Shown: positions 2,463 through 21,800 of the stretch, one piece after another | Layout of the letters: each line of letters opens with the position of its first letter | Position numbering within the stretch: position 1 is the first letter of the stretch | From: a virus | Strand: one strand, 5' to 3' | Length of the DNA stretch: 64,000 nucleotides | Virus record (IMG/VR): IMGVR_UViG_3300050821_001689 | Span: 5,958 to 69,957 of that record | Translations under genes and position numbers: made by a program | Notes under the pieces: generated by a model | What the model was told of the DNA's origin: nothing | Database searches by the model: none | The model's input: only the letters and a program-made list of their open reading frames with translations

Positions 2463-2662
2463 AGCAGAAGAGACGTGCGGTGGACAGGCAGAAATTGCGG
2501 ATTACGATTCGCTACGTGCGCTCGCAACTGGCGACCATGTACGGCTCGACGCGCAAGGCGCTTAGGCAAATAGGCAGGCAGAAATACAGAGATACTGTCA
2601 ATAAAGTGCTGGAGCACCTTCCCGCCAACCCCACCACGAAGGGACGGGACGAAAATGAGTGA
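2459..2662 (+). CDS. hypothetical basic protein
   Basis: ATGA coupling. Confidence 0.5.
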   Translation: MKQKRRAVDRQKLRITIRYVRSQLATMYGSTRKALRQIGRQKYRDTVNKVLEHLPANPTTKGRDENE

Positions 2663-4298
2663 GTTAACTAATAAGTTTGGGGTTACCGGGAAATTGCCAG
2701 ACGCACCATTGGGGCAAGCAACTAAATTGGGAAGCGCCCCTGTGCCGCAGAGCGGTGGGGAGGCATTGCCAAGAAATTCCCCGCCAAGCTGGTTTAATCA
2801 ACCCGAGATGGTGAACGGTGTTTGGGTGGACATCGGAGAAGCAACCATGAGCGAGCACGAGAAACCGGCGCGGGAGTTAGTCGAGCAAGCACGCGGTGAG
2901 CATCATTGTGAAACCTGCCAGCATCTTCGCAGTGAACACGCGATGGATTTAGCGGGTGAGACTTTCTGCGAGCACGATGGCCCCGACGAATGTAAATGTG
3001 AAAGCTACAAAGGCGCAATGCCACCAAGTTACGTGGAACTACTCGACTCTCTCGCCGCCCTACTAGCCGAGCGGGAGCGCGTGGACATGGAAAGGCTGCG
3101 AGAGTTGAGCGAGAAGGCTGTGCCGGGGCCTTGGGATGGGCCATGCTTGCACTACGATGATAACGGCAAGCGTCGGCTGTTCCCACATATCCATGTTGGC
3201 AAGAAAGAAGTGCATCACAGGACTGATTCCAATTCAGCGTGGATTCCCGAAGAATGGGAGGGTGAGTGCAAAAACTATCTCGTCGTGAACAACACTAGCA
3301 CTGGTGGAGACTTGCAACACTTCGATGACAACGCCGCCTTCATCGTCGCCTGCGTAAACCACGTGCGCGAAATGCTGGCCGCAGCCGAGGGAGCCAAGGA
3401 GCCGCCAATGTCTCAGAGTGAACCTGGATGCAAAAGTTGTGAAGAATCAGCGAGCGGCGTGTGCACAAGACACAACGAACATGGAAGAAATGCCGCCCCG
3501 GACGAGCAGGGAGCGTTGCGGGAGACACAAACAGGGAAGTTCGGCGCATGGCTAAAGAGATGGCAGTTTCGCATTCCAAATGAAGCCATCTGGGAATTGA
3601 AAGCCGCCCTCGCCACTCCCCCGGCAGGCAAGGGAGACGCGGAGCCGTTCTACGATGAAGAAATCAACACTTTACTTACTGGGCGCTTTGGCGTTTCTAG
3701 CGTGACCGGGCTTGATGACATTGCGTGGTTCACCAGACAGCTAAATAAGCTGGCAAACGTAAAGCGACCCGAAGGCGGGAAGGGTGGTGATGATGTACGA
3801 AAGCATGAGCATCCTACCCTAACTGCTCTGCGTGCAGTTGATAACGAAGCTGCACAAGCGTATGCCGATTGCGGCGAAGACGAAAAGGCGTTACGCCGCG
3901 AGTTGTGGTTGAGTCATGGACACTTTAATGCACTCTATGGTGACGACGGCGAGATGCAGTGCGGAGAGTGCTACATTGACTACAAGCGCCAGCCCGTCGC
4001 GGAAATCATCCGCATTCGTGGCGAAAATGGCCTTCGTAAACTGGCTGCGGCACCGCAAGAATATCCGCATTTGCTAATTTGCAACGGCGATAGACGATTT
4101 CCCGCTGGCGTACCGGGGCATAATTGCTGCTGCTTGAACATCGATATTCAAATGGCTGCAAGAGCAGAACGTTCAGCGACACCCGAAGGCCGGAAAGGGC
4201 TGTGCGGATACAAGACAGAACGGTGGATGAATGGCATCGACCACCCGCAACGAGTTTCAGGCGCAACTAGCGCCGCGAAGGATGGTGATGCCCCTTGA
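2655..4298 (+). CDS. mosaic phage protein including an Ead/Ea22-like module
   Basis: 547 aa; LRELSEKAVPGPW...DNAAFIVAC module plus several Cys/His clusters and internal SD+ATG starts. Confidence 0.6.
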   Translation: MSELTNKFGVTGKLPDAPLGQATKLGSAPVPQSGGEALPRNSPPSWFNQPEMVNGVWVDIGEATMSEHEKPARELVEQARGEHHCETCQHLRSEHAMDLAGETFCEHDGPDECKCESYKGAMPPSYVELLDSLAALLAERERVDMERLRELSEKAVPGPWDGPCLHYDDNGKRRLFPHIHVGKKEVHHRTDSNSAWIPEEWEGECKNYLVVNNTSTGGDLQHFDDNAAFIVACVNHVREMLAAAEGAKEPPMSQSEPGCKSCEESASGVCTRHNEHGRNAAPDEQGALRETQTGKFGAWLKRWQFRIPNEAIWELKAALATPPAGKGDAEPFYDEEINTLLTGRFGVSSVTGLDDIAWFTRQLNKLANVKRPEGGKGGDDVRKHEHPTLTALRAVDNEAAQAYADCGEDEKALRRELWLSHGHFNALYGDDGEMQCGECYIDYKRQPVAEIIRIRGENGLRKLAAAPQEYPHLLICNGDRRFPAGVPGHNCCCLNIDIQMAARAERSATPEGRKGLCGYKTERWMNGIDHPQRVSGATSAAKDGDAP

Positions 4299-4483
4299 TT
4301 ATACGACTATGCCTGAGACGACTAGCATTACTGGCAGCCATCCTACTTGCGTCGGCCCCGATGGTAGACCAGCTTGCTACGTCTCAGAATCACGAGGCCG
4401 CTTGACGCCGATAGAGCGGAGCCGTCAGGTATCGGCACCTTTTGCGGGGACGGACTGATGGGAGGAGTAATTAAAAATTCCAC

Positions 4484-4512
4484 TTGACAAGTTTTGGGAA
4501 GTATGGTAGTTT
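4484..4512 (+). promoter_or_regulatory. sigma70-type promoter
   Basis: TTGACA-17nt-TAGTTT with TG extension, then GAGGAG SD. Confidence 0.65.
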
Positions 4513-4534
4513 TGAAAAATGAGGAGAGGGAAAG

Positions 4535-5296
4535 ATGGCAAAATTACACGAATTACTAGCGGTAGGCACTAACCTTGAGAATCAGGCGAACAAAACCCGC
4601 GCTGACCTTATGGCGACGTTCGATAAGAAACGCCACCTGTTTGAGCAGAAACTGGTGACATTCCAGTCCAATGAGGAAGGAGTGGCTCCGGTCACTGAGG
4701 CCCAGTCGGATATTCAGAGTACTGTGTCTAAAGAACTGGGATGGATTAGTTCCATCCTGACCAAGGACATTGACTTGGGACATCAAGTTGACATTGCTAA
4801 TACCCAGGCGAAGGCGGACATTGTGACTGAAGATGGGGAGACCATTGCCAAGGATGTTCCGGCGACCAGTCTCTTACAACTGGAGAAGCATCTTCAGAAG
4901 TTCCATGAATTGCTGGTGACGGTGCCGACACTCGACCCGGCAAAGGGTTTCTCTCAGGATGATACCCGAGAGGTGGGTATTTTCAGGGCCAGGGAAGTCA
5001 ACAAGTCCCGGACCAAGAAGATTGCCAAGCCGTTAGTTCTGGCTCCAGCGACCGACAAACACCCAGCACAGGTACAACTGGTGACGGAAGATGTGGTGAC
5101 TGGAACCATTCAGGAACAGGAATGGTCCGCGTTATTGACTCCGGCCACGAAGGCTGATTTGATTGAACGTGGTGAAGTGTTACTGCGGGCGGTCAAGAAA
5201 GCCAGAGCACGGGCCAATGAAATGGACTTGGATGTTGCCACACATAAGATTGGCAAGCGACTTTTGGACTACGTGTTGAAGCCGTTGTCTAAGTAA
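4535..5296 (+). CDS. coiled-coil protein of unknown function, upstream of structured RNA
   Basis: 253 aa, strong SD; helical N- and C-termini around a central VLAPATDKHPAQVQLV segment. Confidence 0.85.
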   Translation: MAKLHELLAVGTNLENQANKTRADLMATFDKKRHLFEQKLVTFQSNEEGVAPVTEAQSDIQSTVSKELGWISSILTKDIDLGHQVDIANTQAKADIVTEDGETIAKDVPATSLLQLEKHLQKFHELLVTVPTLDPAKGFSQDDTREVGIFRAREVNKSRTKKIAKPLVLAPATDKHPAQVQLVTEDVVTGTIQEQEWSALLTPATKADLIERGEVLLRAVKKARARANEMDLDVATHKIGKRLLDYVLKPLSK

Positions 5297-5387
5297 AAGG
5301 TCCACACGGGGCACCCATACTGCGTCAGTCAGGGTAGTGGGACGCAGCCAACCACTCTGCTCCGTAGGAGGTTGGCAAATTTTGAGT

Positions 5388-5720
5388 TCGGGGGCGGGTC
5401 GAAAGACCTGTTCCAACTTCAGGGTGAAGGTCAGACTTAGACTCACGCAATCAGACTATTACCCCGAAGGTTCAAGTGACGATAAAGTGACTGGGGATGC
5501 GCGGTTGCAAAATTAAGCCTAGGACGCCGGTTCAAATCCGGTCCCCCGAGCCATGAGGGTTCCTTGGAATCCTGATGTCGGGGGTAGCTTAGTGGTAGAG
5601 CATAGGTACTCAGACTGACGACCGTGGGGTTCTTTGGGAGCTAAAGTGAATCGTTACGAACATACTTATGGCTCATAACCATATACAATCGGGGTCGGTG
5701 GCAGGCTAGTCATCGGCCCC
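5388..5720 (+). ncRNA. structured ncRNA containing a circularly permuted tRNA-like domain (5517-5607)
   Basis: T arm GCCGG-TTCAAAT-CCGGT, CCCCCGA-G-CCA, linker hairpin, TCGGGGG, D arm GCTT-AGTGGTA-GAGC, TAGGT pairing with GCCTA; flanking helices; ends approximate. Confidence 0.75.
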
Positions 5721-5745
5721 ATAAAATTTCGAGAGGGAGAGGAAA

Positions 5746-6171
5746 ATGAGTAAAACTTGTGCATTACCGAAGTCGGTGTTTCCATTGAAGTTCAAGGTGG
5801 ACTCGCCGGTTCATGCTTTACAACTAGCCAGGAAGTTGATTAAACCGTTTAGGTATTGGACAGTGGGGTCTCTAGCTGAGGGTAAGGACAAAGATGGTGA
5901 CATTCACTCCGTGGGAGTCAAGAGCACCAAAGCCGAGGCTTTTTGTGCTCTCGGGGCGCTGTTGAGGGTTAATACTCGCCATCAGAAACGAGCTAAGTTC
6001 TTCCTGCAACAGGCTGCGGCTGAGTACATGGGGACTGACCCGATATATGCTCGAGAGGCCGATATTTTTGATGTAAACGACCGAGGGCAGGACAAAGAAA
6101 CTCACCGAGAAGTTCTCAAAATGTTCGCCCGCGCCATTCAATTGGCTAAGAAAGCGGCGGGCAAGAAATGA
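5746..6171 (+). CDS. hypothetical phage protein (DUF6197-like)
   Basis: W..G...FCALGAL...ND...H.EV motif pattern; SD GAGAGG. Confidence 0.7.
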   Translation: MSKTCALPKSVFPLKFKVDSPVHALQLARKLIKPFRYWTVGSLAEGKDKDGDIHSVGVKSTKAEAFCALGALLRVNTRHQKRAKFFLQQAAAEYMGTDPIYAREADIFDVNDRGQDKETHREVLKMFARAIQLAKKAAGKK

Positions 6172-17972: not shown

Positions 17973-18047
17973 GGACCCTTAGCACAACGGACAGGGCACT
18001 TGGCTACGAACCAAGAGATGAGTGTTCGATTCACTCAGGGTCCTCCA
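17973..18047 (+). tRNA. tRNA-Arg(ACG)
   Basis: Cloverleaf, loop CT-ACG-AA, encoded CCA. Confidence 0.9.
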
Positions 18048-18054
18048 TATTTGA

Positions 18055-18129
18055 GGTCGGTTCGTTCAATGGACAGGACGGGAGCCTCCGAAGCTCCAAA
18101 TCACGGTTCGACTCCGTGACTGACTTCCA
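18055..18129 (+). tRNA. tRNA-Arg(CCG)
   Basis: Cloverleaf, loop CT-CCG-AA, CCA. Confidence 0.9.
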
Positions 18130-18135
18130 GAATTT

Positions 18136-18213
18136 GTGGCTGTACCGGCCTCGATTCCTAATCGAGTAACCGTAACTGGACTGATGTGAGTTCAAGTCTC
18201 ACCAGCCACTCCA
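18136..18213 (+). tRNA. atypical tRNA-Arg(CCT) lacking D arm
   Basis: Perfect acceptor, anticodon and T stems, CCA; 7-nt connector instead of D arm; 19-nt variable region. Confidence 0.7.
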
Positions 18214-18219
18214 TAATTC

Positions 18220-18294
18220 GGCCCTGTCGTTCAATGCACAGGACTCTCGGCTTCTACCCGAGAAATCTGGGTTGGATTCCCAGTGGGGCCTCCA
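18220..18294 (+). tRNA. tRNA-Arg(TCT)
   Basis: Cloverleaf, loop CT-TCT-AC; variant D and T loops. Confidence 0.85.
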
Positions 18295-18298
18295 TATT

Positions 18299-18389
18299 AG
18301 TCGGTAGCATCAGCCATGCAGCGTGGACTTATACCCCACGAGGAGCAGATTACTCCGCCGAGAAGGGGCAGCACCTTCACCGACTACCA
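18299..18389 (+). tRNA. atypical tRNA with TAT anticodon (Ile?) and long variable arm
   Basis: AGTCGGT/ACCGACT-A-CCA; loop CT-TAT-AC; T loop GGCAGCA. Confidence 0.65.
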
Positions 18390-18393
18390 TTTT

Positions 18394-18471
18394 GGGCTAG
18401 TGGTCAAATGGCAAAGGCGCTCCGCTCAAACCGGAGAGATTTTGTGAGTTCGACTCTCACCTGGCCCACCA
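18394..18471 (+). tRNA. tRNA-Leu(CAA), short variable region
   Basis: Cloverleaf, loop CT-CAA-AC, CCA. Confidence 0.85.
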
Positions 18472-18475
18472 TTTT

Positions 18476-18564
18476 GGAGAGGACGCCGGAATTGGTACCG
18501 GTACCTGACTGTAAATCAGGAGTCCCTTGGGATAATGTAGGTTCGACTCCTACTCTCTCCACCA
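18476..18564 (+). tRNA. tRNA-Tyr(GTA)
   Basis: Class II cloverleaf, CT-GTA-AA, CCA. Confidence 0.9.
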
Positions 18565-18612
18565 TTTTTCTTGCAACTTTATGGTACACTGTAGCATCAT
18601 ATGGTTGTCAGT

Positions 18613-18685
18613 GGGCTCGGAGTAGGACGGGTATACGCCTCGTTTGCACCGAGGAAAAGGGGTTCGACTCCCCGCGGGTCCACCA
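18613..18685 (+). tRNA. tRNA-Ala(TGC)
   Basis: G3:U70, A73, TT-TGC-AC, CCA. Confidence 0.85.
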
Positions 18686-18692
18686 ATTTCGT

Positions 18693-18766
18693 GCTTGTTT
18701 AGCTCAATGGTAGAGCCCCGGCCTGAAACACCGGTTACCGTGGTTCGATTCCACGTGCAAGCGCCA
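18693..18766 (+). tRNA. tRNA-Phe(GAA)
   Basis: Cloverleaf, CT-GAA-AC, G73, CCA. Confidence 0.85.
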
Positions 18767-18767
18767 T

Positions 18768-18851
18768 ACCCTGCTGGTGGAACGGCAGACACACTTGGCT
18801 TAGAACCAAGCGCCGAAAGGCATGGGGGTTCAAATCCCTCGCGGGGTACCA
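18768..18851 (+). tRNA. tRNA-Leu(TAG)
   Basis: Class II cloverleaf, CT-TAG-AA. Confidence 0.92.
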
Positions 18852-18856
18852 ATTTT

Positions 18857-18943
18857 GCGTCTGTGCTGGAACTGGCAGACAGCTTGGCCTGAGAAGCCAA
18901 GGTCCTAACGGACGTGGGGGTTCAAGTCCCCCTGGACGCACCA
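18857..18943 (+). tRNA. tRNA-Leu(GAG)
   Basis: Class II cloverleaf, CT-GAG-AA. Confidence 0.92.
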
Positions 18944-18948
18944 AATTT

Positions 18949-19034
18949 GCGCTGCTGATGGAATGGCAGACATGGGAGACTTAAAACCTCCTGCCTTAAC
19001 AGGCGTCCGAGTTCGAGTCTCGGGTGGCGCACCA
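18949..19034 (+). tRNA. tRNA-Leu(TAA)
   Basis: Class II cloverleaf, CT-TAA-AA. Confidence 0.92.
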
Positions 19035-19039
19035 ATTTT

Positions 19040-19128
19040 CGAGATGTAGGCGGGTAAATGGAAGCCCTCTGGTTTTGGAAACCAGCGCCACATCGGCCTT
19101 GCAGGTTCGAGTCCTGCCATCTCGACCA
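19040..19128 (+). tRNA. tRNA-Pro(TGG) with long variable arm
   Basis: C1-G72, A73, TT-TGG-AA, GCC-ACATC-GGC variable hairpin. Confidence 0.8.
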
Positions 19129-19133
19129 TTTTT

Positions 19134-19207
19134 CGGGGAGTCTGATAACGGTAGTCTCCCGGCGTCGGAAGCCGGTGGCGAGTGTTCGACTCACTCTTCC
19201 CCGACCA
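19134..19207 (+). tRNA. tRNA-Pro(CGG)
   Basis: C1-G72, GT-CGG-AA, CCA. Confidence 0.85.
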
Positions 19208-19212
19208 TCTTT

Positions 19213-19286
19213 AGGCTGTTAGTTCAAAGGTAGAACAGCGGACTCCAAACCCGCGAATGGGCGCTCGAAACGCTCACGGCCTGCCA
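19213..19286 (+). tRNA. tRNA-Trp(CCA)
   Basis: CT-CCA-AA, G73, CCA. Confidence 0.85.
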
Positions 19287-19292
19287 AATTTT

Positions 19293-19367
19293 GTGTTCCT
19301 AGTCTAACGGCTAAGACGCGGGCCTGTGAAGCCCATTATCTCGGTTCGATTCCGAGGGAACACCCCA
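19293..19367 (+). tRNA. tRNA-His(GTG)
   Basis: CT-GTG-AA, C73; -1 base is T. Confidence 0.88.
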
Positions 19368-19391
19368 TTTTAGGTTAAGACACGCTTTTGA

Positions 19392-19464
19392 TGCTGGGAG
19401 AATCGGTATTCAAGTCTGACTCATAACCAGACCTCCGTGGGTTCGACTCCCACTCCAGCGACCA
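19392..19464 (+). tRNA. tRNA-Met/Ile2(CAT) with reduced D arm
   Basis: CT-CAT-AA, D arm GAAT-CGGT-ATTC, CCA. Confidence 0.75.
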
Positions 19465-19472
19465 TTTTCTGT

Positions 19473-19546
19473 TGTGGAATAGTTCAGTGGTAGAATAGGC
19501 TCCCGATAAGGGCTTGACGCTGGTTCGATTCCAGATTCCACAACCA
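19473..19546 (+). tRNA. tRNA-Ile(GAT)
   Basis: CC-GAT-AA, CCA. Confidence 0.88.
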
Positions 19547-19551
19547 AATTT

Positions 19552-19626
19552 ACCCGGCTCGTCTAACGGCCAGGACACTTCGCCTACACCGAAGGGGACA
19601 GGGTTCAATTCCTTGGCTGGGTACCA
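19552..19626 (+). tRNA. tRNA-Val(TAC)
   Basis: CC-TAC-AC, CCA. Confidence 0.88.
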
Positions 19627-19631
19627 TTTTC

Positions 19632-19705
19632 GCGGTCATCGTACATTGGCAGTACGATTGCTTGCCAAGCAATAAAGCCGGGTTCGATTCCCGGTGGCCG
19701 CTCCA
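19632..19705 (+). tRNA. tRNA-Gly(GCC)
   Basis: TT-GCC-AA, U73, CCA. Confidence 0.92.
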
Positions 19706-19707
19706 GA

Positions 19708-19824
19708 TGTTCGGGGAAATGAAGGTTCGAGTCCTTCGCCTCCAGCAAGCGATAAGCGCCAGGGTCATTCCCTGGATGTCTCGCCCTAGTGAAGGTAATC
19801 GTCTAACGGTAGGACGCCCCGACG
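19708..19824 (+). ncRNA. circularly permuted tRNA-like RNA (YrlA-like topology)
   Basis: TCGGGG, T arm GAAGG-TTCGAGT-CCTTC, branched closed acceptor region, D arm GTCT-AACGGTA-GGAC, CCCCGA. Confidence 0.7.
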
Positions 19825-19831
19825 CGATTTT

Positions 19832-19905
19832 GCGAGACCAGTGTGACGGTCGCACGGGTGCCTTCCAAGCTCCAGGTCGGAGTTCAAGTCTCCGGTTTCG
19901 CTCCA
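19832..19905 (+). tRNA. tRNA-Gly(TCC)
   Basis: CT-TCC-AA, U73, CCA. Confidence 0.85.
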
Positions 19906-19911
19906 TTTTGT

Positions 19912-19987
19912 TGGGCAGTAGTTTAACTGGTAGAACGGCTGACTTTGAATCAGTCAGGTTTAGGTTCGAATCCTAACTACCCAACCA
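19912..19987 (+). tRNA. tRNA-Gln(TTG)
   Basis: CT-TTG-AA, U1-A72, CCA. Confidence 0.9.
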
Positions 19988-20003
19988 AAGTTTAGGAGGT
20001 CCC

Positions 20004-20429
20004 ATGAAGAAAGCTATCTGTACCCTGGCCATGTTACTTACCATGTCCGCGGTAGCCGACGCCAAACCGAACTGGAAGCGCATCGGAAAAATAGCTCTCG
20101 TCTGGGGAGCCCCGGTGGCTTCTTCTCTACTAGCCACTAAGGGCGGGGTAGACTGCCGTAAACGTAATGGCGTGGCTCCTTGCAGCGAACATTACGGTGA
20201 GTTCAATGCTTTCGAAGGTGTCCGTGGCGGGTTTAGTCTGACCATGAGCACCCTCTCCTGGAAATGTCTCAACGGAACCGGAGACAAAATGTGTTACAGT
20301 ATGGCTGTAGGCACGGCGGTCTTTAATACCTACTGGTGGAGACACGAGGAGGGTATTTATAAGCCGGAGGATACCACTAAGATTGGTACCTTAGTGGTCC
20401 CCAAGAGTTTTCTGTTGAAAAGGTATTAA
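20004..20429 (+). CDS. signal-peptide-bearing protein inside tRNA array
   Basis: AGGAGG SD; MKKAICTLAMLLTMSAVADA signal; paired Cys. Confidence 0.8.
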   Translation: MKKAICTLAMLLTMSAVADAKPNWKRIGKIALVWGAPVASSLLATKGGVDCRKRNGVAPCSEHYGEFNAFEGVRGGFSLTMSTLSWKCLNGTGDKMCYSMAVGTAVFNTYWWRHEEGIYKPEDTTKIGTLVVPKSFLLKRY

Positions 20430-20437
20430 GTTTCAAT

Positions 20438-20512
20438 TGCCCTGTCGTCTAACTGGCAGGATTAGGGACTCTGAATCCCTCGATAAAGGTTCGAATCCTT
20501 TTGGGGCAACCA
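20438..20512 (+). tRNA. tRNA-Gln(CTG)
   Basis: CT-CTG-AA, CCA. Confidence 0.9.
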
Positions 20513-20539
20513 AGCATCTGATGTAGTGACGGTTTCTAC

Positions 20540-20615
20540 TGTGGTCTGGTCCAACTGGCAGGACGGGATACTGTTAATATCTACGGTCTCGGTTCGAATC
20601 CGAGGGCCACAGCCA
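20540..20615 (+). tRNA. tRNA-Asn(GTT)
   Basis: CT-GTT-AA, G73, CCA. Confidence 0.9.
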
Positions 20616-20674
20616 AATTTAAGGTCCAGGATTATTGACCGTAAGCCCTTTTAGGTCAATACTCTGATACCTAA

Positions 20675-20748
20675 GCCGAGTTCGTTCAACGGTAGGATAG
20701 GGAGCTTGTACCTCCTGGACGAGCGTTCGACTCGCTCACTTGGCTCCA
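20675..20748 (+). tRNA. tRNA-Thr(TGT)
   Basis: CT-TGT-AC, CCA. Confidence 0.88.
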
Positions 20749-20808
20749 GTTTGGTCGGGTTATACCTTGACAAAATGTGAAGTTTTGTCATGCCATAACT
20801 TGACATTC

Positions 20809-20884
20809 GCACTGTTGGTCCAGTTGGCTACGACTCCACTCCCGTAAAGTGGAAACGTTGGTTCGAATCCAACACGGTGCTCCA
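20809..20884 (+). tRNA. tRNA-Thr(CGT)
   Basis: CC-CGT-AA, CCA. Confidence 0.88.
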
Positions 20885-20889
20885 TTTTT

Positions 20890-20963
20890 GCTGGTATCGT
20901 TCAGTGGTAGGACATCTGCTTGGTAAGCAGAGGACTCACGTTCGATTCGTGGTACTAGCTCCA
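20890..20963 (+). tRNA. tRNA-Thr(GGT)
   Basis: TT-GGT-AA, CCA. Confidence 0.9.
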
Positions 20964-20968
20964 TTTTC

Positions 20969-21042
20969 GGGGTCGTCATCTAGTGACAAGATGCCCGACT
21001 GTCTATCGGAGAACGGGAGTTTGATTCTCCTCGACCCCGCCA
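20969..21042 (+). tRNA. tRNA-Asp(GTC)
   Basis: CT-GTC-TA, G73; variant D and T loops. Confidence 0.85.
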
Positions 21043-21086
21043 TCTTAATTGCCAAAAGCGACATATATGTCTCTTTAGGCGAATAT

Positions 21087-21160
21087 GGCCCTGTCGATTA
21101 GTGGCAGGTCGTCTGGTTCTCGACCAGATAGCGGGAGTTCGATTCTCCCCGGGGCTACCA
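21087..21160 (+). tRNA. tRNA-Glu(CTC)
   Basis: TT-CTC-GA, CCA. Confidence 0.88.
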
Positions 21161-21229
21161 GGTTTGGGGCCTTTAAATATAGGCTTTAGGAGTTAAATTC
21201 ACCCTAAAGCCTAGACTTATGGGCTTTGT

Positions 21230-21303
21230 GGCGAGGTCGTCTATGGGTAGGAAGGGAGCCTTTCAAGCTCTCAGAGCGGGTTCGAGTCCCGCCCTCGCTA
21301 CCA
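21230..21303 (+). tRNA. tRNA-Glu(TTC)
   Basis: CT-TTC-AA, CCA. Confidence 0.88.
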
Positions 21304-21312
21304 TAAATTTGT

Positions 21313-21388
21313 CGGTTGCAAGTGTTAGCGGCAGCATACTCGCCTTTTAAGCGATGGGGTCAGGGTTCAAGTCCCTGGCGACCGACCA
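21313..21388 (+). tRNA. tRNA-Lys(TTT)
   Basis: CT-TTT-AA, CCA. Confidence 0.88.
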
Positions 21389-21394
21389 AAAGTT

Positions 21395-21454
21395 GGGCAT
21401 TGGGGTTCGAGACCCCGGCAACTTTCCATAGGAGAGTTGAGTCTGGGACTGCCC
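21395..21454 (+). ncRNA. miniature permuted tRNA-like element
   Basis: GGGCA/TGCCC closing stem, T arm with TTCGAGA loop, 9-bp hairpin, GTC-TGG-GAC mini arm. Confidence 0.5.
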
Positions 21455-21462
21455 CCGGATTT

Positions 21463-21537
21463 GGGCTACAGGTGTTACGGTAGCATTGCTCCCTCTTAAG
21501 GAGACAGGACCGTGTTCAATTCACGGGTGGCCCACCA
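21463..21537 (+). tRNA. tRNA-Lys(CTT)
   Basis: CT-CTT-AA, CCA. Confidence 0.88.
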
Positions 21538-21543
21538 TTTTAC

Positions 21544-21631
21544 GGAGGATTGGCAGAGTGGCAATGCACACGGCTGCTATCCGTGAGTCTACCGTAAGGT
21601 AGCGGGGGTTCAAGCCCTCCATCCTCCGCCA
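21544..21631 (+). tRNA. tRNA-Ser(GCT)
   Basis: Class II, CT-GCT-AT, G73. Confidence 0.9.
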
Positions 21632-21635
21632 TCTT

Positions 21636-21721
21636 GGAACGTATGGGCAATGGTGCCCCGCGGTCTCGAAAACCGCCACAGCCGCAAGGCTAATAGAGTT
21701 CGATTCTCTAGCGTTCCGCCA
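21636..21721 (+). tRNA. tRNA-Ser(CGA)
   Basis: Class II, CT-CGA-AA, G73. Confidence 0.88.
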
Positions 21722-21726
21722 TTCTC

Positions 21727-21800
21727 GGCTGGTAAGACGAACGGTTAGTTGACTGTCTGCAAAACAGTTGTAGTGGGTCCGACTCCCACACCGGCCTCCA
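21727..21800 (+). tRNA. tRNA-Cys(GCA)
   Basis: CT-GCA-AA, U73, CCA. Confidence 0.85.

Follow-up and report, generated by a model that had tools for sequence, protein, structure and literature searches.

A YrlA-type RNA of phages, linked to DUF7873 genes and containing a permuted tRNA domain with CCA

The genome of a soil phage, recorded in IMG/VR as IMGVR_UViG_3300050821_001689 (69,957 bp, with direct terminal repeats and a completeness rating of 100%), carries a structured RNA of about 340 nt downstream of a gene for a protein of the Pfam family DUF7873. The stretch analysed, referred to here as the window, comprises bases 5958–69957 of this record (64,000 nt), and positions are those of the window, in which the core of the RNA extends from nt 5387 to 5720. 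The RNA is real and conserved, contains a circularly permuted, CCA-bearing tRNA domain, and is tied to the upstream gene in related phages. It is best read, with moderate confidence, as a phage RNA of the YrlA type whose likely partner is the DUF7873 protein and which RNase P probably splits in two. Gene and RNA lie on the same strand (nt 4535–5729) and would together constitute a mobile two-part phage module, in which the non-coding RNA would have three parts: a 5′ repeat domain, a YrlA-type tRNA mimic with NCCA, and a 3′ hairpin or terminator region.

Results

Conservation of the RNA and its linkage to DUF7873

Relatives of the DUF7873 protein (31–83% identity) were collected from 45 IMG/VR loci and one contig of a metagenome-assembled genome; five of these are duplicates, leaving 41 distinct loci. 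A covariance model (R1), built from four copies of the RNA and run on all 46 loci, placed the domain downstream of the DUF7873 gene, on the same strand, in 44 of them (E ≤ 3.4e-10). Locus L020 gave a weak match (25.5 bits, E = 5.4e-5) and L015 none, the copy in the latter being degenerate by eye. Cultured phages also carry the pair. A tblastn search located DUF7873 proteins in 75 records of cultured phages (29 of Vibrio, 12 each of Rhizobium and Gordonia, 7 of Klebsiella, 6 of Serratia, 3 of Arthrobacter, the remainder of other hosts), and in phages of Rhizobium, Gordonia (two), Vibrio, Ralstonia, Klebsiella and Arthrobacter the domain was found in seven out of seven, occupying an unannotated gap behind the gene (E ≤ 1.2e-8). 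The earlier note on this DNA had described the RNA as belonging to the gene before it, and the homologues gathered here bear this out.

DUF7873 is the only gene family to recur beside the RNA. When 422 neighbouring open reading frames (ORFs) from 42 loci were clustered, every other family was confined to three loci or fewer; the sole further cluster (four loci) consisted of antisense ORFs that overlap the DUF7873 gene. What passes from one setting to another, in surroundings that are otherwise unrelated, is therefore the gene plus its RNA.

The fold itself is supported by compensatory base changes. Across the 46 matches aligned with R1, 95.3% of cells were paired and all 19 pairs showed double changes, while none of 500 shuffles was as good and partners slid out of register paired in at most 47.5% of cases. 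Because an alignment based on R1 is biased towards the model, 28 longer sequences were aligned independently with MAFFT, and from this alignment RNAalifold recovered the cloverleaf unaided. Pairing was 100% in the acceptor stem, 99.3% in the T stem, 99.1% in the D stem and 98.2% in the anticodon-like stem, against at most 53% for slid partners. All four tRNA stems proposed in the earlier note are thus kept with compensatory changes, and its coordinates for the two tRNA halves proved exact on direct reading of the sequence. Within the window, the 449 nt between the DUF7873 gene and the next gene (starting at nt 5746) are non-coding and have a folding z-score of −3.57, with 0 of 100 shuffles equally stable. 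We regard the structure, its conservation and its linkage to the gene as established.

Some loci hold more than one copy. The most distant DUF7873 relatives (31–32% identity) are followed by tandem permuted domains (L046, nt 3321–3634; L047, nt 3335–3646), and phages Ziko, phiRSL1 and FBKp24 have extra copies upstream of the best match. In Klebsiella phage vB_KpM_FBKp24 (MW394391.1; locus L055) two tandem domains lie behind the DUF7873 homologue (locus nt 3990–4172), the first with ACCA, and the record carries the annotation 'tRNA-OTHER / tRNA-Sup-TTA' across both of them (locus nt 4018–4097), which is probably a miscall by a tRNA finder.

The encoded CCA and RNase P cleavage

An NCCA follows the acceptor 3′ strand in 33 of 39 parsed copies and, by eye, in that of L014, giving 34 of 41 where chance would provide 1 in 64 per copy. 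Conservation of the CCA is likewise established. It is missing from the other seven copies, and six of these (L005, L011, L042 and L045–L047) have longer, closed acceptor hairpins, resembling in this respect YrlA of the Salmonella type.

Bacterial RNase P RNA is known to pair with the RCCA of its substrates. Among YrlA RNAs, the one whose acceptor stem has 7 bp is that of Mycobacterium smegmatis; for this RNA, Chen et al. (2014, PMC4201824) report cleavage by RNase P, in vitro as well as in vivo, and the presence of CCA, so that Ro60 of M. smegmatis holds a two-piece RNA. Given the 7-bp acceptor stem, the conserved encoded NCCA and this precedent, comparison suggests that cleavage of the present RNA at 5577/5578, with trimming to CCA5553, is likely.

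Use of the CCA end for charging is unsupported so far. The discriminator varies (C in 19, T in 8, G in 5 and A in 1 of 33 copies), and a G3:U70 pair was not seen by eye in any parsed copy; in the window pair 3:70 is G-C (G5580–C5547), in line with the earlier statement that alanine identity is lacking. There is thus no sign of a specific amino-acid identity, and neither the discriminator pattern nor position 3:70 lends charging any backing.

Architecture of the RNA

The features of the gene and the RNA are listed in Table 1. The anticodon-like stem has no loop and runs on into long flanks, and for this reason the RNA cannot be a decoding tRNA. The 24-nt hairpin linker between the tRNA halves is present as first described; a linker of this type is common only to the closest relative (L004), and linkers elsewhere are mostly A-rich and 3–12 nt long.

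Table 1. Positions of the DUF7873 gene and of the RNA features in the window
Feature	Position (nt)	Strand	Remarks
DUF7873 gene, 253 aa	4535–5296	+	ORF; Pfam PF25283; predicted homodimer
Two extra hairpins between stop codon and RNA core	5320–5376	+	Minimum free energy (MFE) fold; common only to closest relative
5′ domain	5387–5468	+	Stem P1 enclosing hairpin P2 and a single-stranded run of hexamer repeats
Stem P1	5387–5393 (TTCGGGG) with 5462–5468 (CCCCGAA)	+	86% paired; CG/UA switch at one pair
Hairpin P2, GAAA loop	5395–5410	+	82% paired; all five pairs compensated
Period-6 YUNARR repeats, single-stranded	about 5417–5458	+	Three AGACT within
Circularly permuted tRNA-like (YrlA-type) domain	5502–5624	+	Rfam YrlA, 24.2 bits; own model R1, 117.2 bits
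Outer stem	5502–5507 with 5619–5624	+	Closes the tRNA-like domain
Anticodon-like stem	5517–5521 (GCCTA) with 5603–5607 (TAGGT)	+	Opens into the flanks
Variable loop, GGAC	5522–5525	+	
T arm, GCCGG/TTCAAAT/CCGGT	5526–5542	+	
Acceptor stem, 7 bp	5543–5549 (CCCCCGA) with 5578–5584 (TCGGGGG)	+	
Discriminator G, then encoded CCA	5550, then 5551–5553	+	Putative 3′ end of the processed 5′ piece
Linker, 24 nt	5554–5577	+	7-bp hairpin at 5556–5573
Candidate RNase P cleavage site	5577/5578	+	5′ of the acceptor 5′ strand; 7-bp stem, NCCA and M. smegmatis precedent
TA (U8-A9)	5585–5586	+	
D arm	5587–5601	+	
A	5602	+	
Small hairpin TATGG/CCATA in 3′ part	5667–5683	+	L001 counterpart TATAC/GTATA
GC-rich hairpin (5691–5720) and A/T-rich tail	5691–5729	+	MFE fold; similar hairpin in most loci (by eye)

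The repeats of the 5′ domain follow a motif of period six (YUNARR), with 76 matches in 28 DUF7873-linked RNAs compared with 5.9 in shuffled sequences. The four AGACT copies pointed out in the earlier note (at 5433, 5439, 5453 and 5612) were found and belong to this motif, and the hairpins said to bound the RNA also exist, at 5395–5410 and 5691–5720. Its pairing of the flanks did not survive: ACCCC (5461–5465) with GGGGT (5627–5631) is paired in 44.1% of cases across 28 relatives, against 45.5% after shuffling. Instead, CCCCGAA pairs with TTCGGGG to form stem P1. The outer stem is paired in 73–75% of cases, on an imperfect MAFFT alignment, and shows many double changes.

The two hairpins that precede the core are missing from most other loci, where the core starts 7–20 nt past the stop codon; one of them reads GCCAACC/GGTTGGC in the window and GCTACTC/GAGTAGC in L001. 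The 3′ part is variable, and in 10 of 41 relatives an ordinary tRNA gene is found between the permuted domain and the final hairpin. The hairpin and tail at 5691–5729 are the probable 3′ end of the RNA or its terminator. A scan with terminator consensus sequences did not list the 5691–5720 hairpin, its tail being too poor in T. Judged by eye, the loops of this hairpin and its equivalents seem to be conserved beyond the need of a plain terminator, and GCGYGGWAGCG or CAGGCWAG recur across distant loci.

Relationship to YrlA and tmRNA

At their gathering thresholds, Rfam models matched only tRNAs in the window. A permissive scan of nt 5250–5760 returned one sizeable match, to YrlA (RF02553; 24.2 bits, E = 0.0071, cut-off 69), which covers the full length of the model (positions 1–114). 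YrlA was again the sole sizeable match in three relatives (28–31 bits), and other DUF7873-linked copies scored 26.6–36.6 bits against it. The likeness to YrlA seen in the earlier note is therefore upheld, YrlA being the best Rfam match and sharing the permuted topology, and the comparison with the Rfam models gave no full match to an existing family (24.2 bits for YrlA against the required 69).

A motif situated close to YrlA's 5′ end, GNCGAAN0-1G, was proposed as the contact for Ro60 (Chen et al. 2014, PMC4201824). The window contains GTCGAAAG at 5399–5406, but this is no more than hairpin P2's GAAA loop; in most relatives the P2 loops differ (GCAA, GAGA and UUCG among them).

The gene order is also that of a two-piece permuted tmRNA gene, with the T arm, the acceptor 3′ strand and CCA ahead of the acceptor 5′ strand, and weak local matches to tmRNA models occur in L001 (12.3 bits) and L059 (19.9 bits), both far under the cut-off of 47. 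No Rfam tmRNA model matched nt 5250–5760 at E values up to 10, and neither in the window nor in the 41 loci did ARAGORN call a tmRNA. Position 3:70 has G-C instead of G:U, and there is a full D arm together with an anticodon-like stem. The 3′ part has an indel relative to L001 and a hairpin with compensatory changes, which makes it unlike a tag frame, and in many relatives a tRNA gene lies there. A tmRNA is judged to be refuted as an explanation.

Ro60 genes and Ro60-linked RNAs

YrlA is encoded within about 4 kb of the Ro60 gene and on the same strand, and was found near Ro60 in 22 phages (Chen et al. 2014, PMC4201824). There is no Ro60 gene within 4 kb of the RNA in the window; the earlier note had reported none in the window as a whole, and this extends to the entire 69,957-bp record, which gave no TROVE matches. 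Among related records, TROVE occurs in 6 of 45 (and is absent from 39), in 3 of the 19 that are at least 90% complete, and in one of seven cultured phages. Its absence from most carriers of the RNA is established.

In four of the six TROVE records, the TROVE gene is within about 5 kb of the module and on the same strand. Four TROVE regions were fetched, and three hold a second YrlA match beside TROVE, in addition to the DUF7873-linked RNA. These three TROVE-adjacent YrlAs have a loop-closed acceptor stem (with GCAA tetraloops in two) and no CCA. One of them has the motif GNCGAANG, and the Ro60-contact motif is present, as GTCGAATG, in a Ro60-linked copy of L057. Hexamer repeats gave only 0–1 matches in four Ro60-linked Y RNA regions; on the sequences compared, the YUNARR 5′ domain marks the DUF7873-linked class. 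With a second, canonical YrlA beside TROVE, each protein seemingly has its own RNA.

These observations bear on the possibility that the RNA is an ordinary Ro60-dependent YrlA, where the phage provides the Y RNA, the host provides Rsr (Ro60) and PNPase, and DUF7873 is an unrelated neighbour. YrlA is the best Rfam match, TROVE genes do lie near the module in some relatives, phages with YrlA beside Ro60 are on record, and in one locus (L090, below) an open, CCA-bearing domain is found directly upstream of Ro60. Against this stand the separate canonical YrlA in three of the four regions fetched, the lack of conservation of the GNCGAAN0-1G contact motif in the DUF7873-linked class, and the fact that no gene but DUF7873 accompanies the RNA. 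We consider such a dependence on Ro60 unlikely.

A pattern scan from the RNA side gave at least 85 matches in 80 loci, mostly tandem tRNA genes. Among the matches listed, the acceptor strands were perfectly complementary in four; DUF7873 lies upstream of two of these, a Ro60 gene directly follows the third (L090), and the fourth is on a piece too short to tell. Locus L090 carries three tandem Y-like RNAs on the minus strand (nt 5560–6110), directly upstream of a gene for Ro60 (TROVE and vWA_Ro60). The first has an open acceptor stem and C-CCA, and the other two are closed by UUCG loops. Promoters of the form TTGACA-N17-TATAAT precede the array and again lie just ahead of the Ro60 gene.

A hidden Ro60 was sought in the 547-aa ORF just upstream of the DUF7873 gene (nt 2655–4298), which is not kept beside DUF7873 in other loci. 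It has no Pfam match at E ≤ 0.01 (a chance-level 12-bit match at E ≤ 10), no PHROGs or NCBIfam family and no match among PDB sequences even at E values as high as 1, and its Atlas model has a predicted local distance difference test (pLDDT) of 0.43; it was rejected as a candidate, a very divergent Ro-like fold being beyond the reach of these searches. Proteins that combine DUF2828 and DUF7788 occur in 3 of 46 records, other than those with TROVE, and adjoin the module in L003/L038, a single phage, where a vWA-like protein of 502 aa is encoded before it (nt 1244–2752). Compared with true Ro60, they show weak collinear similarity of the vWA type (E = 0.42 and 0.77) and no PDB sequence match, and the literature listings for DUF2828 gave nothing on RNA or phages. 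In another phage (L002/L006), a 602-aa protein of the SPFH/Band 7 type is encoded after the module (nt 4230–6038). Both architectures are reminiscent of proteins that have been discussed together with RNA-repair systems.

Genomic setting and tRNA genes

The phage is rich in tRNA genes. An array of at least 30, all encoding CCA, was detected by ARAGORN on the + strand (nt 17973–21721), and Rfam adds two matches beyond these (20969–21039 and 21727–21797). The array is about 12 kb from the module, and no tRNA directly follows the permuted domain in the window. Of the 41 related loci, 18 have tRNA genes on the same strand at a distance of up to 2.5 kb, and in 10 such a gene comes immediately after the domain; in cultured phages the DUF7873 gene is usually inside a tRNA cluster. 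In L041 (nt 4086–4158), some 280 nt beyond the permuted domain, ARAGORN reports a tRNA of the ochre-suppressor type with anticodon TTA; it might be a real tRNA or another tRNA-like element.

This setting would suit a cis-acting processing or stability element of a tRNA-type operon, recruiting RNase P and other enzymes to free the DUF7873 mRNA from downstream tRNAs, or guarding its 3′ end, with no role in trans. The short distance from the stop codon to the RNA core in most loci, the tRNA genes that follow on the same strand and the position of the gene in tRNA clusters of cultured phages are all consistent with it. A plain tRNA or hairpin would suffice for this task, however, whereas the permuted fold, the NCCA, the outer stem and the repeat-bearing 5′ domain are conserved with covariation down to about 31% protein identity; and in the window no tRNA follows, the array being 12 kb away. 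A purely cis-acting role is accordingly thought improbable.

The wealth of tRNA genes also gives some circumstantial support to a decoy or sponge, which would protect the tRNA set of the phage by sequestering a tRNA-attacking or tRNA-sensing factor of the host, such as a nuclease acting on the anticodon or the acceptor end, or a nucleotidyltransferase toxin: carriers have many tRNA genes (30 in the window, and clusters around the module in relatives), and conservation extends to the CCA end. Clustering of the neighbouring ORFs linked no gene for defence or counter-defence to the module (the PADLOC library was not scanned), no target is known, and there is no anticodon loop to mimic. As an explanation in its own right a decoy is very unlikely; it is compatible with a DUF7873-bound YrlA-type RNA, for which it would provide the biological purpose.

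A DNA search of a phage collection with nt 4400–5800 of the window as query gave no match, and a scan for promoters and terminators found no promoter-like site ahead of the RNA. A search of RNA libraries yielded a single contig of 172 nt, which lies within the coding sequence (nt 4900–5071), may reflect DNA carry-over and leaves the RNA region uncovered.

The DUF7873 protein

The 253-aa protein matches Pfam PF25283 over nearly its full length (216.8 bits, E = 4.8e-64; residues 1–249 on profile positions 1–243 of 244; curated cut-off, 27 bits), and has no PHROG or NCBIfam family. One search returned 2524 homologues at E ≤ 1e-3. Its predicted isoelectric point (pI) is near-neutral (6.4). The AlphaFold model (pLDDT 78.9, predicted TM-score (pTM) 0.50) consists of long helices alternating with beta hairpins.

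Prediction with two copies gave an interface score (ipSAE) of 0.66, against 0.00 for the best control, with an agreement of contacts between runs of at least 69% and a partner pLDDT of at least 77. In calibration, 20 of 30 solved pairs came up to the ipSAE mark, as did one of 23 single chains. The predicted interface is large and symmetric and takes in the conserved segment 188–201; by these models, the protein is probably a homodimer.

No fold could be assigned. Foldseek with the model found nothing at E ≤ 1e-3 in the PDB or BFVD, and a wide structure search (VIA) returned as its top match a protein of unknown function (3kdq_A; Z 8.7, root-mean-square deviation 9.0), the remaining rows being generic helical hairpins. 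A profile search of the PDB gave a best E value of 0.54, and the Atlas only unnamed clusters at 0.80–0.81; none of these is a convincing relative. No literature on DUF7873 was found, in a search that reached few subscription journals.

In L043 (nt 2501–3116), the DUF7873 frame is seemingly split into two overlapping ORFs (2501–2911 and 2880–3116), with an intact RNA domain behind it (50.8 bits). A frameshift, an error in sequencing or decay of the copy could account for the split.

Discussion

Proposed processing and function

From the conserved structure, the linkage and the M. smegmatis precedent, we infer a scheme for cleavage, protein binding and function. Host tRNA-maturation enzymes would act on the transcript: RNase P would cut 5′ of TCGGGGG (5577/5578), and the freed linker would be trimmed back to CCA5553. 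The two pieces would be held together by the acceptor, anticodon-like and outer stems and by the elbow of D and T loops, as in YrlA of M. smegmatis. A dimer of DUF7873 would be the dedicated partner of this RNA, taking the place that Ro60 has for canonical YrlA. On the strength of the gene linkage, we hold it somewhat probable that DUF7873 is the functional partner; the hexamer-repeat domain might, speculatively, be its likeliest docking site. The particle would then offer a tRNA-shaped module to the tRNA-handling or RNA-decay machinery of the host during infection.

A further-reaching version can be envisaged, in which a Ro60-independent, phage-specific ribonucleoprotein (RNP) reprogrammes host tRNA or RNA metabolism. 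A dimer or higher assembly of DUF7873 would read the period-6 NAR repeats, RNase P would split the RNA, and the exposed CCA would be used, whether in charging, by CCA-end enzymes, or as an entry into translation or RNA decay. Taken as a whole, this is doubtful, and we put it forward tentatively.

Several points weigh against the pairing of a cleaved YrlA-type RNA with DUF7873. In L090, an open, CCA-bearing permuted domain stands directly upstream of a true Ro60 gene; the CCA form is therefore not specific to DUF7873, and both classes are one kind of RNA. The sample obtained from the RNA side is tiny (four domains among at least 85 pattern matches), and Ro60 may be supplied by the host. The tight adjacency of gene and RNA could reflect mere co-transcription. 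The case for binding of the RNA by DUF7873 comes from this adjacency, and the near-neutral protein (pI 6.4) has no recognised RNA-binding fold. Closed copies without CCA exist, so cleavage is not essential for every member. Finally, the ends of the RNA are predictions from the sequence, and the sole RNA-library contig, lying inside the coding sequence, is uninformative on processing either way.

Novelty and significance

A Y-RNA-like tRNA mimic that ends in CCA and is possibly cut by RNase P is already known in kind. The earlier note had suggested an undescribed ribonucleoprotein with a two-piece RNA; this is borne out in part, in that the RNA is conserved and tied to the DUF7873 gene, and the claim to novelty in kind falls with the precedent of M. 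smegmatis YrlA (PMC4201824). A literature search that covered few subscription journals found no account of a Y-like RNA linked to DUF7873. By that search, the new elements are DUF7873 as a constant companion, the fact that Ro60 is usually missing, a 5′ domain with repeats, the encoding of CCA as a trait of the family, and the finding that cultured phages contain the module unannotated. Chen et al. (2014) list phages with YrlA in their Tables S1 and S2, where some RNAs of the DUF7873-linked class might already figure.

Y RNAs are defined by their Ro60 partner, and here a YrlA-type mimic mostly travels with a different, uncharacterised protein family, for which it provides the first functional lead. 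The RNA gene is directly testable in cultured phages of Gordonia, Rhizobium, Vibrio, Arthrobacter and other hosts, where it has gone unannotated. An RNase P-cut Y RNA ending in CCA would be extended from M. smegmatis to a large family whose genes themselves encode the CCA, with selection acting on it, and this may help in explaining the position of the module among phage tRNA genes. On the practical side, tRNA finders can miscall permuted domains, as in the case of vB_KpM_FBKp24. If a Ro60-independent RNP does exist, proteins would have provided a solution for Y-RNA-like tRNA mimics a second time and independently, spread over thousands of phages, cultured ones included.

Comparison with known systems

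In the permuted tRNA genes of the red alga Cyanidioschyzon merolae, the 3′ half is encoded upstream of the 5′ half and the products mature to normal tRNAs with an anticodon loop. The order of the halves is the same in the phage RNA, which differs in lacking an anticodon loop and in having long flanks. Two-piece tmRNA genes share the permuted order and an encoded CCA, after which comes an intervening stretch that processing takes out; here, in contrast, there is no alanine pair and no tag frame, and the D arm and an anticodon-like stem are complete. The bacterial tRNA mimics RF02924, RF02926 and RF03030, described in a recent preprint, likewise keep the upper half of tRNA, with acceptor and T arm, and the elbow. 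They are other families: none matched nt 5250–5760 at E values up to 10, and the accessible part of the preprint mentions neither phages nor CCA.

The closest known system is YrlA, especially the M. smegmatis form. Both have the order T arm, acceptor-like stem, D arm; in both, the flanks pair as an outer stem into which the anticodon stem opens, and the D and T loops have tRNA-like sequences. The acceptor stem of 7 bp is as in the M. smegmatis form. The phage RNA differs from YrlA in its score (about one third of the cut-off), in the lack of a conserved GNCGAAN0-1G, and in the absence of a Ro60 gene here and in most relatives. Its CCA is encoded, whereas M. smegmatis YrlA receives CA once it has been cleaved (Chen et al. 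2014, PMC4201824). Beyond YrlA, the DUF7873-linked class has an extra 5′ domain of hexamer repeats and DUF7873 as its constant neighbour.

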